NCBI GenBank assembly: GCA_041891055.1
Contig: CP169074.1
Coordinates: 128,001 to 192,000, forward strand
DNA: 64,000 bases
Direction of reading: 5' to 3'
Source: Halorutilales archaeon Cl-col2-1
GTDB taxonomy: Archaea; Halobacteriota; Halobacteria; Halobacteriales; Afararchaeaceae
In this document: piece by piece, positions 13,124-20,677 of the stretch
How positions within the stretch are numbered: the first letter of the stretch is position 1
Layout of the letters: each line of letters opens with the position of its first letter
Program-made: the position numbers and the translations under genes
The notes under the pieces: model-generated
Seen by the model: only the letters and a program-made list of their open reading frames with translations
The model's database searches: none
What the model was told of the DNA's origin: nothing

Positions 13124-13318
13124 TTATGCTCGGACGAGGTTGTCCGCTCTGGGACCCTTGTCGCCCTCAACTATCTCGAATTCGACTTCCTCACCCTCTT
13201 CTAGGTCAGGACCTCCTATGTCCTCCATGTGGAAGAAAACATCGTCGTCTGCTTCGTCCGTTTCGATAAATCCGTAACCCTTCCTGTCATGGAAAAAGGT
13301 TACCTCTCCTTCTGCCAT
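13124..13318 (-). CDS. Cold-shock protein
   Basis: KGYGFI (RNP1), DVFFH (RNP2), KGPRA. Confidence 0.94.
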   Translation of the reverse strand: MAEGEVTFFHDRKGYGFIETDEADDDVFFHMEDIGGPDLEEGEEVEFEIVEGDKGPRADNLVRA

Positions 13319-13407
13319 GTTACTACGTAATTACCCTAGAGGGATATACTTACCGGAAAGACATCTCTGCGTCAACTCTTATCATCCTCTACCTCACTTC
13401 CGACAGC

Positions 13408-13415
13408 TTTAAATA
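13408..13415 (+). promoter_or_regulatory. TATA box of the leuA-ilv operon
   Basis: tttaaata about 25-30 nt upstream of ATG 13440 (leaderless geometry). Confidence 0.6.
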
Positions 13416-13439
13416 TACGAGATACGAATTTCGGGTACC

Positions 13440-13541
13440 ATGTCCCATAATGGAGAGGGTAGTAGAAGGGATCTGATCCCTTCGACGCCAGGCGACCACC
13501 AGGGGAATCGTTTTTTGGGATCACAGTGTAGACTCCGTTAG
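13440..13541 (+). promoter_or_regulatory. leuA leader: 33-aa uORF overlapping the leuA frame, an in-frame 8-aa mini-ORF (13450-13476) and alternative helices
   Basis: [33 protein letters not shown]; MERVVEGI*; palindrome gaagggatc-t-gatcccttc (13465-13483); T6 tract 13511-13516. Confidence 0.55.
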
Positions 13542-15069
13542 TATATTTGATACTACGCTTAGAGACGGCGAACAGTCTCCAGGGACGTCATTCTCGCACG
13601 ACGACAAGATCAAGATAGCCGACACCCTCGACGAGATGGGTGTCGACGTCATAGAGGCGGGCTTCCCGATCAACAGCGACGAGGAGTTCGAGGCTGTACG
13701 TGAGATCACTGAAAGGGTCGACTCCGATGTCTGTGGTCTCGCGAGGGTCAAGAAGCCCGACATAGACGCCGCGATAGATGCCGACGTCGATCTGATACAT
13801 ACGTTCGTCTCGTCGAGCGACGTCCAGATCGAGAACAGCCTCGACTCGTCACGTGAGGAAGTTCTCAACATGACGGCTGAGGCAGTCGAACACATAACTG
13901 ACCACGGCTATGACTGTATGTTCTCGCCGATGGACGCGACACGTACCGACTTCGACTTCCTCGTCGACATAGTACGTACGGCGAGCGAGGCGGGAGCCGA
14001 CATAGTCAACATACCCGACACGGTCGGTGTGATGCGTCCGACTGCGATGAAACGTCTCATATCAGGTCTGAGAGATGAGGTCGATGTGCCCTACGACGTC
14101 CACTGCCACGACGACTTCGGTCTTGCGACCGCGAACTCGATAGCCGGAATAGAGGCAGGCGCAGTCCAGACACAGGTCAGCGTCAACGGAATAGGCGAGC
14201 GCGCCGGAAACGCGGCTCTCGAAGAGGTCGTGATGTCGATAGAGAGCATATTCGGTATCGATACGGGCATCGACACCACGAAGATCTACGAGCTCTCGAA
14301 GCTCGTCGAACGCCTCTCGGGCATACCTCTGCCTCAGAACAAACCCATCGTGGGTAGCAATGCCTTCTCTCACGAGTCGGGAATCCACGCCGCAGGCGTG
14401 ATAGAGGACTCCTCGACATTCGAGCCCGGAATAATGACCCCTGAAATGGTGGGTCACAGACGACGTCTCGTGATGGGTAAGCACACAGGAAAACACAGCG
14501 TCCGTGAGACTCTCCAGGACGCCGGATACGACCCGTCTGAGGATGAGGTCAACGAGATCACGAGACGTATCAAGTCGATGGGTGGCAAAGGAAAACGCAT
14601 CACAGACGCCGATGTCTTCGCAATCGCTGAGAGTGTTATGTCGAACGTTCCCGAGTCGGAGAAACTCATCGACCTAGATGAGGTGAGCGTCGTTACAGGC
14701 AACAAGACCACTCCGATGGCGAGCGTAAAGGCGGACGTCGACGACGAGGTACGTGTCGACGCGAGCGTCGGAGTAGGCCCCGTAGACGCTGCACTCAACG
14801 CCGTCGAGTCGATAATCGAGGTCGAGACTGGAGACGACCACGACATTGAGATAACTGACTTCCATATCGACTCGATAAGCGGCGGAAGCGACGCTGTAGC
14901 CAACGTCTATGTCGGAGTAGCCGACTCGAAGGGACGTGAGGCGAACGCCAACGCGTCGAGCGAGGACATAACTACGGCGAGTGTTGAGGCTGTCGTCGAC
15001 GCCATAAACCATCTCGTCAGGAAGAGGGAGTCAGACGACGAGATAGAGGAAACTGAGGCAACACCATGA
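13477..15069 (+). CDS. leuA: 2-isopropylmalate synthase (LeuA/CimA family); true start unresolved, frame open from 13477
   Basis: [14 protein letters not shown] lies upstream of the first ATG (13636); [22 protein letters not shown]; C-terminal allosteric domain GVGPVDA. Confidence 0.88.
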
Positions 15070-16871
15070 GCAAGTCCGAAGAAGAGAAGTCTGAGAAAAA
15101 ATCACAGACACAGACAGACAACGAGGCGCAGGCTGACGAAGCCGAGGCAGGTTCGGAGGAGAGACACGAAAGGAGAGGAGCGCGCGCCCTCGTCGAGGGT
15201 CTAAAAGACGAGGGTGTCGAAACGATGTTCGGTATAACCGGCGGCGCAATAATGCCCGTCTACGACGAACTCTACGATGACGAGGACATAGAGCACGTCA
15301 TGATGGGTCACGAACAGGGCGCAGCCCACGCCGCCGAGGCGTACCACTCGGTCTCGGGACAGCCCGGTGTCTGTCTTGCGACCTCGGGTCCGGGTGCCAC
15401 CAACCTGATCACGGGTATAGCCGACGCGAGTATCGATTCACGTAGTGTCGTCGCTATCACGGGTCAGGTTCCGACCGACCTGATAGGTAACGACGCCTTC
15501 CAGGAGACCGACACACGTGGCATCACGATGCCTATCACTAAGCACAACTACCTCGTCGAGTCGAGCGACGAGGTTCCCGACACTGTCCAGGAGGCTTTCC
15601 ACATAAGCTCGACCGGACGACCGGGTCCTGTCGTGATAGACCTCCCGAAGGACGTCTCTAAGAACAACACCGACGCTGAGAAGCGAGACGTCGAAGTCGA
15701 GGGCTACAACCCGACATACAAGGGACATCCCGAACAGATCAAGAAGGCTGCGGAGGCTATACAGGACGCCGAAAAGCCCGTGATCTTCGCGGGCGGTGGT
15801 GTCATAATGGCAGAAGCGAGCGACGAGATACGTGAGCTAGCGATGGAGAACGACATACCCGTGACGACTAGTCTTCAGGGACTCGGCGCGTTCCCCGAGG
15901 ATCATCCTCTTTCGCTCGGAATGCTCGGAATGCACGGCACCGGCTATGCCAACCGCGCTATCACCGAGTCTGACCTCCTCATAGCCATAGGCACGAGGTT
16001 CGACGACCGTGCGACAGGAAAGATCGAGTCGTTCGCGCCCCGTGCCGAGGTCATACACGTCGACATTGACCCCGCCGAGATATCGAAGAACATCCACGCC
16101 GACATACCCATTGTCGGGGACGCGAAGGAGGTCACACGTAACCTCAATGACTACATAGAAGCCGAGTTCTCGTCACCCGACACAGCCGACTGGCTCGAGA
16201 AGATCGACGACTGGAAGGCGAAGTACCCGATGGAGTACGAAGACGACGAGGACAGTCTCAAGCCACAGTACGTCATTGAGGAGATCGACAGGATGACTCC
16301 CGACGACACAGTCGTCACGACGGGAGTCGGACAGCACCAGATGTGGGCGGCTCAGTGGTACACCTACAAGGAGCCGCGAACGTGGGTTTCGAGCGGCGGA
16401 CTCGGTGCGATGGGTGTGGGACTCCCGATGGCAATAGGAGCCAAGTACGGGGCTCCCGACCAGGAAGTCGTCTGTATAGACGGAGACGGATCGTTCCTGA
16501 TGACGGTACAGGAGCTCTCGACCGCCGTCCGTGAAGAGCTCGACATCACAGTTGCGATACTCAACAACTACTACCTCGGAATGGTGAGACAGTGGCAGGA
16601 GCTGTTCAACGACGAGAGGTACGCCGAGTCGGAGATGGAGAAGCTACCACAGTTCGACAAGATCGCAGAGGCGTTCGGCGCTCACGGGGAGCGCGTCGAG
16701 TCCGAGGACGAGGTTGAGGACGCACTCGAAGCCGCGTTCGAGTACGACGGTCCGAGCGTCATCGACTTCATAATAGATCCGATGGAAAACGTCTTCCCGA
16801 TGGTTCCGGCGGGAAGCGGAAACGACGAGTTTATAATGGGCAAAGGAAGTCCCGGGAGTAGAATATCATGA
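15066..16871 (+). CDS. ilvB: Acetolactate synthase large subunit
   Basis: [36 protein letters not shown]...NN ThDP motif. Confidence 0.96.
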
Positions 16872-17428
16872 GCCAGCCACAGAGAGAACCCAGCGGAGTC
16901 CGTGAAGGAGAGTCCGAGGACGGAGGCGGAGTAAGAGAGCACACTCTAGCAGTCTTAGTCGAGAATAAGCCGGGTGTTCTCTCGCGCGTATCTGGACTCT
17001 TCACACGCAGAGGCTTCAACATAGACTCGCTCGCAGTCGGCGAGACCGAGAACCCCAACTACTCACGTATGACGATAGTCGTGAGAGCGGACGACAAGAC
17101 GATAGAGCAGGTCTCGAAACAGCTCAACCGTCTCATAGAGGTCATAAAGGTCTCGAACCTCACAGAGGACGAGTCGGTCGAGCGCGAACTCGCCATGATA
17201 AAGGTCTCGTCGGACGAGGATGTGCGTAGCGAGATAATGCAGATAACCGACATCTTCCGCGCGACAGTAGTCGACGTCGGACGTGAGTCTCTCGTCGTCG
17301 AGGTCACGGGAGACTCCGATAAGATAGAGGCGATGGTCGACATGCTGCGCCAGTTCGGAATACGTGAGATGGTCAGAACCGGAAAGATCTCTCTCGCGCG
17401 AGGTCCTAAGACAACAAAGGCGGACTGA
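16868..17428 (+). CDS. ilvN: Acetolactate synthase small subunit
   Basis: ACT domain [25 protein letters not shown]; EMVRTG. Confidence 0.95.
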
Positions 17429-17495: not shown

Positions 17496-18524
17496 ATGAC
17501 TGACGCAGACGCGGATACAGATACGGATACCGACATAGAAGCCTACTACGACGAAGACGCCGACCTCTCGTACCTTGACGGCAAGACTGTCGCAGTCCTC
17601 GGATACGGATCACAGGGACACGCACAGGCACAGAACCTCGACGACTCGGGTGTCGACGTCGTCGTGGGTCTGAGACAGGACTCGTCATCTTGGGACGCCG
17701 CCAAGGAAGACGGTCTCACGGTAATGGAGACGGGACAGGCTGCCGACACCGCCGACGTCGTCCAGATACTCGTCCCGGATACCGTCCAGCCCGATGTCTA
17801 CGAGAACAGCGTTGCACCCAACCTCGACGAGGGAGACGCTCTGATGTTCTCACACGGATTCAACATTCATTACAACCAGATAAGACCTCCCGAAGACGTC
17901 GACGTTCTGATGGTAGCCCCGAAGGCTCCCGGACATCTCGTGAGGAGAACATACGAGAGAGGTGAGGGTACACCCGGACTCCTAGCCGTTGAACACGACT
18001 ACACCGGAGAAGCCGAGGAGGTCGGACTCGCCTACGCGAAGGGAATCGGCTGTACGCGTTCGGGTGTGCTTGAGACGAGCTTCAAGGAGGAGACGGAGAC
18101 TGACCTCTTCGGGGAGCAGGCTGTTCTCTGTGGTGGAGCCTCCGCACTCGTGAAGCAGGGGTACGAGACACTCGTCGACGCGGGGTACTCGCCCGAGATG
18201 GCTTACTTCGAGTGCATGAACGAGCTAAAGCTCATAGTCGATCTGATGTTCGAGGGCGGTCTTGAGAAGATGAGAAACTCGATAAGTGATACCGCCGAGT
18301 ACGGCGACCTCACACGTGGATCTCGGGTCATAGACGAGGACGTGAGAGAGAACATGGAGGAGGTTCTCGAAGAGGTTCAGAATGGCGAGTTCGCACGCGA
18401 GTGGATAACTGAGAACCAGACTGGACGTCCCGTCTACAGCCAGCTAAAGGAGAGAGACGAGAACCACGAGATAGAGGCAGTCGGCGACGAGCTACGTTCG
18501 TTGATGACGTGGGTCGACGAGTAA
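17496..18524 (+). CDS. ilvC: Ketol-acid reductoisomerase
   Basis: [40 protein letters not shown]. Confidence 0.97.
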
Positions 18525-18628: not shown

Positions 18629-20032
18629 ATGTCAGAACGCACACTATACGACAAGGTCTGGGATCGCCACGAGGTACGTCAGCTTCCCACGGGACAGTCA
18701 CAGCTCTTCGTAGGGCTCCATCTCATACACGAGGTCACGAGCCCACAGGCTTTCGGGATGCTTGAGGAGCGCGACCTTGAAGTCGCATTCCCCGACAGGA
18801 CTTACGCCACGACAGACCACATAGTTCCGACGAAGGATCGCTCACGTCCGTTCGAGGACGAACAGGCAGAGGTCATGCTCCAGGAGCTAGAGAAGAACAC
18901 TCAGAAGTACGACATAGAGTTCTTCGACCTCGACTCGGGACACCAGGGAATCGTCCACGTAGTCGGACCCGAGATGGGTCTCACACAGCCCGGTATGACG
19001 ATAGCGTGTGGCGACTCACACACGAGCACACACGGCGCGTTCGGCTCGATCGGCATGGGAGTCGGCACGAGTCAGATACGTGACATATTCGCGACGGGCT
19101 GTATAGCCGCCGAGAAACAGGACGTCAGACGTATACAGGTCGAGGGATCGCTCAGCGAGGGCGTCTACGCGAAGGATCTCATACTCCGTATCATCGACGA
19201 ACTCGGAGTCGAGGGTGGAATAGGCTACGTCTACGAGTACGGCGGACCCGCGATAGACGAGCTCGACATGGACGGAAGGATGTCGATCTGTAACATGAGC
19301 ATAGAAGGAGGTGCGCGAGCGGGGTACGTCAACCCCGACGAGACGACCTTCGATTACATAAAGGGACGTGAGTACGCTCCCGACGACGAAAACTGGGACG
19401 ACGCCGTCGATTACTGGGAGTCGATAAGATCCGACGAAGACGCCGAGTACGACGACTACGTCGAGTTCGACGCCGACGAACTAGAGCCGATGGTGACCTG
19501 GGGAATAACCCCCGGACAGGTCGTCGGAATCTCCGAGAACACTCCGTCTCTCGGCGAACTCCCCGAGGGAGACCGTGAGACTGCCGAGAAGGCGTACGAC
19601 CACATGCAGTTAGAGCCCGGACAGTCGATGGAGGGCGTAGACGTCGACGTCGCCTTCCTCGGCTCTTGTACGAACGCACGTCTCTCCGACCTCAGAGAGG
19701 CGGCGGAGGTACTCGAAGGACACGAGGTAGACCCCGACGTCAAGGCTCTCGCAGTACCCGGATCACAGGGTGTCAAGAGACGAGCCGAGGAGGAAGGCGT
19801 AGCCGACGTATTCAGAGAAGCGGGCTTCGAGTGGCGAGGCGCGGGCTGTTCGATGTGTCTCGGAATGAACAACGACCAGCTTCAGGGTGACCAGCTGTGT
19901 GTCTCGTCGTCGAACAGGAACTACATAGGGCGTATGGGAAGCAAGGAAGGACGTACGGTTCTCATGAGCCCCGCTATGGTCGCCGCCGCGGCGGTCGAGG
20001 GCGAGATAACCGACGTGAGGAGGATGATATAG
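18629..20032 (+). CDS. leuC: 3-isopropylmalate dehydratase large subunit
   Basis: [35 protein letters not shown]. Confidence 0.97.
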
Positions 20033-20677
20033 ATGTCCGACACCGATACTGATACCGAGATCGACCAAAACGACAACGACAGCAGAAAGTCCGTCAGACG
20101 CGTGACGGGAACCGGAGTTCCGCTGAGAGGCGACGACATCGACACCGACCAGATAGTCCCCGCGAGGTTCCTCAAGGAGGTCACATTCGAGAACATGGGG
20201 AACTACGCCTTCTACGACGCACGCCGTGACGACGACGGCGAACTCAACGACCATCCGTTTAACGTCTACAACGGAAACATACTCGTAGTCAACGACAACT
20301 TCGGCTGTGGATCATCGCGCGAACACGCCCCACAGGCTCTTATGCGGTGGGGTATCGAGGGTATCATAGGTGAGTCGTTTGCCGAGATATTCGCCGACAA
20401 CTGTTCTTCGCTCGGAATACCGACCGTGACTGCCGACCACGAGACAGTCGACGGGATACAGTCAACGGTCGAAGACGACCCCGAGACACCTATCGAGATC
20501 AGAATTCAAGACGAGACCGTAACCGTCGGAGACGAGACAGTAGACGTCGGTATAGAGCCGTCGCTCAAGGAGGCTCTTCTCGAAGGCATCTGGGACACGA
20601 CCGCGCTCATGAAGAGTAACCTCGACGAAGTACGCGAGACCTACGAGGAGCTACCCTACACCTCGAACTTCGACTAG
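20033..20677 (+). CDS. leuD: 3-isopropylmalate dehydratase small subunit
   Basis: DIDTDQIVPARFL, NFGCGSSREHAPQAL, SFAEIF. Confidence 0.96.
   Translation: MSDTDTDTEIDQNDNDSRKSVRRVTGTGVPLRGDDIDTDQIVPARFLKEVTFENMGNYAFYDARRDDDGELNDHPFNVYNGNILVVNDNFGCGSSREHAPQALMRWGIEGIIGESFAEIFADNCSSLGIPTVTADHETVDGIQSTVEDDPETPIEIRIQDETVTVGDETVDVGIEPSLKEALLEGIWDTTALMKSNLDEVRETYEELPYTSNFD

Follow-up and report, generated by a model that had tools for sequence, protein, structure and literature searches.

In bacteria, the release factor 2 gene prfB is autoregulated by a +1 frameshift at CUU UGA C with an upstream Shine-Dalgarno (SD)-like element (reviewed in PMC5009743), and the leu operon is controlled by attenuation through the leader peptide leuL. 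No counterpart of such leader-peptide attenuators has been described for amino acid operons in archaea. The leuA gene considered here, which heads the cluster leuA-ilvB-ilvN-ilvC-leuC-leuD, lies in a 64,000-nucleotide (nt) stretch of the genome of Halorutilales archaeon Cl-col2-1 (GenBank assembly GCA_041891055.1, contig CP169074.1, positions 128,001 to 192,000). This whole stretch is referred to as the window; positions are those of the window, and features are on its forward (+) strand unless indicated. The gene has no ordinary start codon ahead of its catalytic site motif, and comparison with relatives indicates that LeuA is probably produced when ribosomes undergo a programmed +1 frameshift at UUU-U/UUG, out of a short open reading frame (ORF) that overlaps it.

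Frameshifting at "hungry codons" is known from Escherichia coli (Gallant and Lindsley 1992, cited in PMC8211752). For archaea, the latter review, from 2021, names a single case of programmed frameshifting in a cellular gene, Saccharolobus solfataricus fucA1, with a -1 frameshift on A-AAA-AAT in one species; leuA is mentioned neither in that review nor in a 2016 general review. The nearest precedent for leuA itself is section 3.2f of Pfeiffer and Dyall-Smith 2021 (Genes 12:963, PMC8305020), a study of 16 curated genomes; it reports major start codon problems in orthologues of HVO_1510 (leuA2). For Haloferax leuA2, that section speculates about an out-of-frame ATG with ribosomal slippage and about leucine dependence, and it leaves the choice between slippage and an in-frame CTG undecided. 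It also reports Haloferax peptides upstream of Met-93 and gives no junction peptide. This was the only paper found in the literature search that links archaeal leuA to frameshifting (the supplements of Antonov et al. 2013 were not covered). A preliminary description of this DNA, made from the sequence alone, had known of no archaeal leuA control of this kind, a statement that has to be corrected in view of that speculation. The mechanism proposed here for leuA would be a new form of the prfB/hungry-codon shift, which earlier publications had foreseen as an unsettled question and no more.

Layout of the leuA 5' end and the proposed frameshift

A TATA-like box (TTTAAATA, 13408-13415) is located 32 nt 5' of an ATG at 13440, a spacing that, taken with the sequence, implies a leaderless or nearly leaderless mRNA. 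This ATG opens a frame-0 ORF of 33 codons, designated ORF0 (13440-13541), which is closed by TAG at 13539-13541. The leuA frame is +1 relative to ORF0 and is open from 13477, just after a TGA at 13474-13476. ATG, GTG, and TTG are absent from it between 13477 and 13636, and the first canonical start, ATG 13636, is 20 codons beyond the end of the catalytic site motif DTTLRDGEQ (13549-13575). The two frames overlap at 13477-13541, and the overlap contains CGT TTT TTG GGA (13509-13520), with a run of six T residues (T6, 13511-13516) enclosing TTT-TTG (13512-13517). The proposed shift site is UUU UUG G (13512-13518), at which the P-site UUU (13512-13514) would re-pair on UUU (13513-13515). The frame-0 codon in the A site would be Leu UUG (13515-13517), and the first +1-frame codon would be UGG (13516-13518). 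Immediately upstream is GGG AAT CGT (13502-13511), read as Gly-Asn-Arg in frame 0, which forms the 5' part of a conserved cassette and is a possible SD-like stimulator. From 13516, the leuA body extends to 15069 (517 codons plus the stop), giving a predicted trans-frame product of 25 ORF0 codons plus 517, or 542 amino acids (aa), and the first 25 ORF0 codons are proposed to be the N-terminus of LeuA. The features on which the preliminary description was built (TATA-like box, ATG 13440, open frame from 13477, catalytic motif, TTT-TTG, and a further ATG at 13450) were all found where it had placed them. A start-less stretch of 53 codons has a chance of about 7% [(58/61)^53] and is by itself weak evidence against chance. 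It is the conservation of the whole layout in relatives that, on comparative grounds, puts the leuA start problem beyond chance.

The layout is not an assembly error. The bases were checked against assembled contigs from three studies, not raw reads. Contigs of run X1, which may be the source sample, matched 13423-14000, and contigs of run X4, from a different study, matched 13436-13619, both with 0 differences and 0 gaps, which confirmed the bases as first described. A contig of run X2, from the sister species, spanned 13300-14000 with 43 substitutions and no gap, and no indel was listed between 13400 and 14000. The substitution pattern also indicates that leuA is under purifying selection. 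Comparison of this genome (G000) with the sister species (G001), to which protein identity is 98%, gave 15 synonymous and 2 nonsynonymous codon changes over the 360 nt that follow the T run. Only one base change, C13478T, was observed in the 72 nt from ATG 13440 to CGT; it is silent in frame 0, and in the leuA frame it replaces Ser by Phe. At 13536, the site of the next change, the roles of the frames are reversed: no residue is altered in the leuA frame, and frame 0 goes from Arg to Cys. The 120 nt 5' of ATG 13440 carried 18 differences.

The ATG at 13450 is in the leuA frame and opens the mini-ORF MERVVEGI (13450-13476), which ends at the TGA. Readthrough or recoding of the UGA from this ATG (MERVVEGI-X-SLRR...), one of the routes offered in the preliminary description, would have to pass one intervening stop only, and the sister species has the TGA too. 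However, ATG 13450 is derived from frame-0 CAT AAT G and arises incidentally from the choice among synonymous Asn codons: the same AAT+G yields an in-frame ATG in loci L135, L163, and L180, others have AAC, and in relatives the ATG is absent or placed elsewhere. The change beside the TGA, C13478T, is silent only in frame 0, and we know of no means by which ribosomes would select an AUG located internally, 10 nt into a leaderless mRNA. The companion explanation, a decaying pseudogene, is opposed by the excess of synonymous changes, the intact 517-codon frame, and the conservation of the layout across the phylum. Both are very improbable, and the mini-ORF is probably incidental. Of the coupling to branched-chain amino acid supply that had been suggested, nothing supports a role for the Val and Ile codons of MERVVEGI, and only the leucine part is favored by the comparisons, conditionally.

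Under the proposed frameshift, transcription would begin at or just 5' of ATG 13440, and ribosomes initiating there would translate 25 frame-0 codons. Peptidyl-tRNA-Phe would then occupy the P-site UUU while the A site awaited Leu-tRNA at the rare UUG. With slow arrival of Leu-tRNA, the P-site tRNA could move one base forward, UGG would be decoded next, and leuA would be completed to give the 542-aa enzyme; ribosomes that did not slip would terminate at TAG 13539, releasing a 33-aa peptide. Since it is a leucine codon that keeps the ribosome waiting, more LeuA should be made when charged tRNA-Leu is low, and via the ATGA overlap of leuA with ilvB the translation of the following ilvBNC-leuCD may rise too. 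We infer the part played by the ribosome rather than RNA polymerase, the exact slipping codon, and the dependence on leucine.

This arrangement resembles prfB in having a short 0-frame ORF, a P-site NUU that would re-pair in the +1 frame (some cassettes are literally CUU-U), and a proposed slow codon in the A site, the decoding of which is tied to what the pathway itself produces. In low-GC lineages, a G-rich element complementary to the anti-SD is also present a few bases upstream. Unlike in prfB, the A site holds a sense Leu codon and not a stop, the 0-frame stop being 8 codons later here and 2 to 10 codons past the Leu codon generally; the gene is archaeal, with a probably leaderless mRNA, and the sensor would be charged tRNA-Leu and not the gene's protein product. 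In two loci, L212 and L225, the frame-0 ORF stops directly after the Leu codon (..RDRFL and then a stop), and these are nearest to the prfB geometry. With the hungry-codon shift, leuA has in common that a slippery codon in the P site is succeeded by one specifying the amino acid in short supply (NUU plus Leu in 103/103 loci); whereas in E. coli that shift is a starvation error in reporters, at leuA it would be a conserved built-in switch. As with leuL, a translated leader with one or more leucine codons precedes the first leucine gene and would gauge tRNA-Leu charging. In contrast to leuL, the Leu codons do not form a run (ORF0 has 3, dispersed among its 33 codons, and the sister family has 1), and the output would be a change of reading frame rather than transcription termination. 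No terminator or antiterminator fold was found: the fold of 13440-13600 was no better than that of shuffled sequences (z, -0.83), and nothing striking was seen in the downstream RNA structure. Like leuA, fucA1 is a cellular archaeal gene in two overlapping frames that is expressed by recoding, with the difference that its shift is -1.

A perfect 8-bp hairpin (GAAGGGAU-CUG-AUCCCUUC, 13465-13483) lies within ORF0 and overlaps the leuA-frame TGA. It is specific to the organism's own genus, and C13478T, the only change at the hairpin in the sister species, converts a G-C pair to G-U. The hairpin repeats the heptamer AGGGAUC that is found in the cassette of other lineages.

Conservation of the cassette and the switch of reading frame

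The leuA 5' region was compared with that of nine close relatives (two loci from the same genus and seven from the sister family), 26 haloarchaeal genomes covering at least 16 families, 80 named haloarchaeal genomes, 80 metagenome loci, and 30 genomes belonging to other families within the phylum. The 26 and the 80 named haloarchaeal genomes may overlap, and the sets are not independent. In the frame of the ATG, a shared cassette was recognized, (R/G)(D/N/G)-Arg-NUU-Leu. All nine close relatives had an ATG in the same frame, an invariant TCGTTTTTTGGGA, and a frame-0 stop 3 to 8 codons past the P-site codon. A frame-0 ATG ORF running through the cassette was present in 2/2 loci of the genus, 7/7 of the sister family, 26/26 other haloarchaea, and 68/80 metagenome loci (for example MEELKMRDRVLYY, MINARDRLLHH, and MGNRFLHC, each followed by a stop), and 78 of the 80 named haloarchaeal genomes had the frame-0 ATG. 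The cassette itself was found in every named haloarchaeal genome (79 by pattern, plus the variant L153), among them members of Haloferax, Haloquadratum, Haloarcula, Halococcus, Natrinema, and Halalkalicoccus. It was also found in 72/80 metagenome loci, which were 53 to 70% identical and had a G+C content of 38 to 59% in the six measured, and in 23/30 genomes from the other families. No canonical leuA-frame start was present between the ATG and the catalytic motif in 2/2 loci of the genus, 22/26 other haloarchaea, 65/78 named haloarchaea, and 36/68 metagenome loci. A TATA-like box at similar spacing was found under a strict pattern in 2/2 and 15/26 loci of the first two of these sets, and with 6 or more of the 8 positions matching TTTATATA in 68/79 named haloarchaea. 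Of the features for which an alignment of relatives had been proposed as a check, the overlapping ORF0 and the slippery site proved to be widely conserved, and the missing start was shared by many of the loci.

In the 26 haloarchaea, whose homologues are ∼400 aa long and 56 to 62% identical over the catalytic domain (residues ∼15 to 390), a common plan was apparent. The ATG opens MS(H/D/N)N...G(G/D)RVLPGH.. followed by a stop, and the +1 frame reads ..R(I/V)EFFQGTL..... A 25-nt block, GGnGGrTCGAGTTCTTCnAGGGCAC, was almost invariant, including six leuA-frame third positions, while the leuA third positions 3' of the block varied freely. By its 5' layout and catalytic domain, the window gene belongs, on sequence comparison, with the haloarchaeal leuA2 (HVO_1510) set, from which it differs in architecture, being longer and carrying PF08502. 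The set analyzed in PMC8305020 comprises the same genes as the loci here, and the Met-93 numbering was reproduced in Haloferax prahovense by starting from an upstream in-frame GTG. This GTG is 29 codons 5' of the conserved ATG and beyond the TATA-like box and, from the position of that box, probably lies outside the mRNA; in Haloferax gibbonsii, the position is not a start, as the published section says of one strain. Relative to that work, the ATG, the shift window, and the cassette are now defined across haloarchaea and other classes, giving the published annotation problem a concrete, testable mechanism with a defined start, a few-base shift window, predicted junction peptides, and a cassette that could be transferred to reporters in Haloferax volcanii. 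The window gene differs from Haloferax leuA2 in having UUU-UUG, not GUU-CUU, and an extra C-terminal domain. The in-frame CTG, the published alternative to slippage, was rejected as a general start, the position being CTG, TTA, ATA, or CTA in the 26 loci.

To locate the change of frame, variants just 5' and 3' of the site were compared in both frames in the named haloarchaea. On the 5' side, the consequences for the leuA frame are Arg to Leu with GCG>GCT (seven loci), Ile to Thr with GAT>GAC (one locus), Ile to Asn or Ser with GAT>GAA/GAG (three loci), and Glu to Gly with CGA>CGG (two loci). Read in the ATG frame, every variant just 5' of GTT was either silent or conservative; read in the leuA frame, each was radical. 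Likewise, the Arg codon before NUU appears as CGT, CGA, CGG, and CGC, which is silent in frame 0 and gives V/E/G/A/D in the leuA frame. On the 3' side the pattern was the opposite: GGC/GGT/GGA are silent in the leuA frame and give His, Tyr, or Asn in the ATG frame, and CAG/GAG/AAG/GAC give Q/E/K/D in the leuA frame versus P/R/Q in the ATG frame. Hence, selection passes between the frames within a few bases. Stops flank the site in both frames: 16 metagenome loci have a leuA-frame stop 4 codons ahead of the landing codon, and 45 have a frame-0 stop 3 codons past it, so that the shift is confined to a few codons. NUU-Y is the only re-pairing site within this interval common to all lineages, as UUU-U here, UUU-C, GUU-C in haloarchaea, and CUU-U, and a re-pairable P-site codon (UUU-U/C, GUU-C/U, or CUU-U/C) was present in 103/103 cassette loci. 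Together, these comparisons show that the reading frame under selection changes at the proposed shift site. Codon position entropy 5' of the cassette showed no clear periodicity in the 26 loci, and pairwise counts of silent and replacement changes 5' of the site were decisive for the closest pairs only.

The same comparisons bear on initiation at a noncanonical codon in the leuA frame, such as the ATC at 13507 named in the preliminary description, with ORF0 as a separate overlapping small ORF. NCBI translation table 11 permits ATC, ATA, ATT, and CTG starts. Database entries do begin at such codons (P0002, MVFWDH; P0061, MEFFQG; P0073, MESARV; P0015, MTTVRG), the sister species protein P0002 being annotated from the position of ATC 13507 itself, and ATC occurs in 8/9 close relatives, while most low-GC cassettes contain it within GGGATCG. 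However, the position is GTC in the remaining close relative (L005) and in 16/26 other haloarchaea, no other near-cognate codon is conserved, and annotators have assigned three different N-termini within one species (414, 419, and 383 aa). As far as the Arg codon, the substitutions agree with frame 0 and not with the leuA frame, and a noncanonical start would leave the conserved ATG at TATA distance without a role. Noncanonical initiation is therefore improbable.

A change of frame at this position could also arise by transcriptional slippage on the T6 run, with RNA polymerase dropping one U or adding two and so joining ORF0 to the leuA frame. The run falls exactly at the junction here and in 9/9 close relatives, and runs of T5 to T6 are present in many low-GC cassettes. 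Oligo-T is also a pause or termination signal in archaea. On the other hand, six T residues are short for efficient slippage, and at the homologous site there is no homopolymer in the 26 and the 80 haloarchaeal loci (GTTCTTC) or in the CGG-GTT-CTA and CGT-CTT-TTA cassettes. Since most cassettes have no T run, a common mechanism cannot depend on one. Slippage by the polymerase, while possible in the T6 lineages, is a slightly poorer prospect still than a noncanonical start as the explanation of the layout. A ribosomal slip of P-site CUU to UUC was considered as well; it fits GTT-CTT-C and does not fit the aligned UUA/CUA of the low-GC cassettes, and in L153 a G follows CTT. It was kept as a local alternative for haloarchaea only.

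Some lineages differ from the plan. Seven of the 30 phylum genomes (L199, L202-L204, L206, L207, and L210) have no cassette and start at a plain ATG (M..MHKHIQIFDTT). Six of these were confirmed in one family, coded f30, and L210 was not confirmed; all seven are probably from this one family. In the metagenome loci L037 and L038 (70% identical), a relic of the cassette, AGGGATCAAAATATTCTAC, is followed immediately by an in-frame ATG, and no frame-0 ATG was found 5' of the relic; from its sequence, this lineage looks reverted to an ordinary start. Other lineages keep the cassette together with an internal Met at the same place (..GMHKN..), which suggests two routes to LeuA in those lineages.

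The leucine codon and the weight of the evidence

The frame-0 codon following NUU was a Leu codon throughout the 103 cassette loci, namely TTA in 51, CTT in 28, CTA in 15, and TTG in 9. In 835 long ORFs of the genome, UUG was the rarest Leu codon, at 3.0% of Leu codons or 2.5 per 1,000, which substantiates the rarity presumed for it earlier; UUU made up 12.8% of Phe codons. One gene each was found for tRNA-Leu(CAA) and tRNA-Phe(GAA). The +1 shift on UUU with the A site awaiting Leu-UUG, as first described, fits all of the comparative tests run and generalizes to other lineages.

Possible stimulators were also sought. The duplex with the 3' tail of the 16S rRNA 5' of the shift codon was calculated at -6.9 kcal/mol in the window. 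In low-GC loci, the median was -11.5 kcal/mol, with 77% of distinct sites ranking among the top 5% of windows in the gene concerned; in other haloarchaea, it was -8.05 kcal/mol, with 27% ranking as high. A nascent-peptide effect of R-D-R was judged unlikely, as ORF0 can be only MGNRF at the shift.

A number of observations weigh against the proposed frameshift or its leucine dependence. Spare in-frame starts are common: 7/7 sister family loci carry a leuA-frame ATG 12 to 13 codons 5' of the site, and an in-frame ATG, GTG, or TTG is near the site in 32/68 metagenome loci and, in the set of 30 phylum genomes, in most of those with the cassette. In these last two sets, the start is usually 8 to 10 codons before the catalytic motif. 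Accordingly, the shift is not obligatory everywhere, and it is the leuA-frame TGA that makes it obligatory in the organism's own genus. Once the close pairs are set aside, purifying selection on the ORF0 peptide is slight in all frames, and 5' of the site the pair L004/L005 differs by 3 changes silent in the leuA frame versus 1 in frame 0. An SD-like stimulator is not evident in the window, the leaderless start is deduced from the TATA-like box only, and the frameshift case as a whole is built from sequence. Finally, leuA-frame TTY followed by TAY, TTC, or TGG (Phe-aromatic) forces Leu in 5/6 possible frame-0 codons. The Leu codon is thus largely forced by the leuA frame, and its conservation is weak evidence for sensing.

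This last point supports a conserved but constitutive +1 frameshift, which would set a fixed low level of LeuA or give two products without sensing leucine, the Leu codon being a by-product. In addition, PF08502 is found in allosterically regulated enzymes, and feedback could act on the LeuA protein instead. On the other hand, the Phe-aromatic pair sits in an N-terminal stretch that is missing in relatives with ordinary starts (METEIKIFDTT in L039 and MHKHIQIFDTT in the f30 loci), so enzyme function does not explain the pair. In L153, the aromatic +1 codon is replaced by TTG and the frame-0 CTT (Leu) is kept, and leuA is the first gene of the leucine pathway. L153 and the ordinary-start relatives favor, from their sequences, Leu as the selected feature. 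The constitutive form is a minority explanation, with perhaps a quarter of the weight.

For a programmed frameshift responsive to leucyl-tRNA, the case is tentative, falling somewhat short of an even chance; given that a frameshift occurs, leucine sensing would be likelier than its absence, although unproven. Much the same tentative weight may be given to the wider proposal of an ancient, phylum-wide switch, in which a tiny leaderless ORF ending in Arg-NUU-Leu would slip +1 into leuA when charged tRNA-Leu is scarce. If true, it would rank as the first programmed frameshift that senses an amino acid and as the first +1 shift shown for a cellular archaeal gene, it would be a functional counterpart of bacterial attenuation, and the public annotation of hundreds of genomes would need correcting.

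Gene cluster, protein architecture, and annotation

The leuA product scored 673.5 bits against the 2-isopropylmalate synthase profile NF002085 (cut-off, 517) and 497.8 against TIGR02090 (cut-off, 484.75), and equivalog models scored below their cut-offs for it. The position of the gene ahead of ilvBNC-leuCD suggests LeuA, acting in isopropylmalate and not citramalate synthesis. A leuA paralogue elsewhere in the 2.06-Mb genome is 43% identical and has an ordinary ATG. In the organism's own genus and the sister family, LeuA is ∼520 to 533 aa long with a C-terminal LeuA_dimer domain, PF08502, whereas the syntenic gene of other haloarchaea (loci L006-L031) encodes ∼375 to 447 aa without this domain. 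The long form is nearer to low-GC archaeal enzymes (53 to 59% identity over the full length).

Thirteen database entries for leuA begin at assorted positions, and none uses the conserved out-of-frame ATG. Arbitrary starts were seen in P0002, P0014/P0015, P0031/P0032/P0073, and P0061, with up to three N-termini in one species. Because these entries start at arbitrary near-cognate codons, the LeuA N-terminus is probably misannotated in many haloarchaea and related archaea.

Downstream, all on the + strand, are ilvB (15066-16871), ilvN (16868-17428), ilvC (17496-18524), leuC (18629-20032), and leuD (20033-20677). These genes were assigned by NCBIfam equivalogs above cut-off (TIGR00118, NF008864, NF004017, and TIGR00170), with leuD assigned by NF002458. 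The leuA stop and the ilvB ATG share bases in an ATGA (15066-15069), and translational control of leuA could reach ilvB-ilvN by coupling. On the other side, a gene for a 64-aa cold-shock-domain protein (13124-13318, - strand) is divergent from leuA, and the 121-nt spacer between the two contains the leuA TATA-like box.

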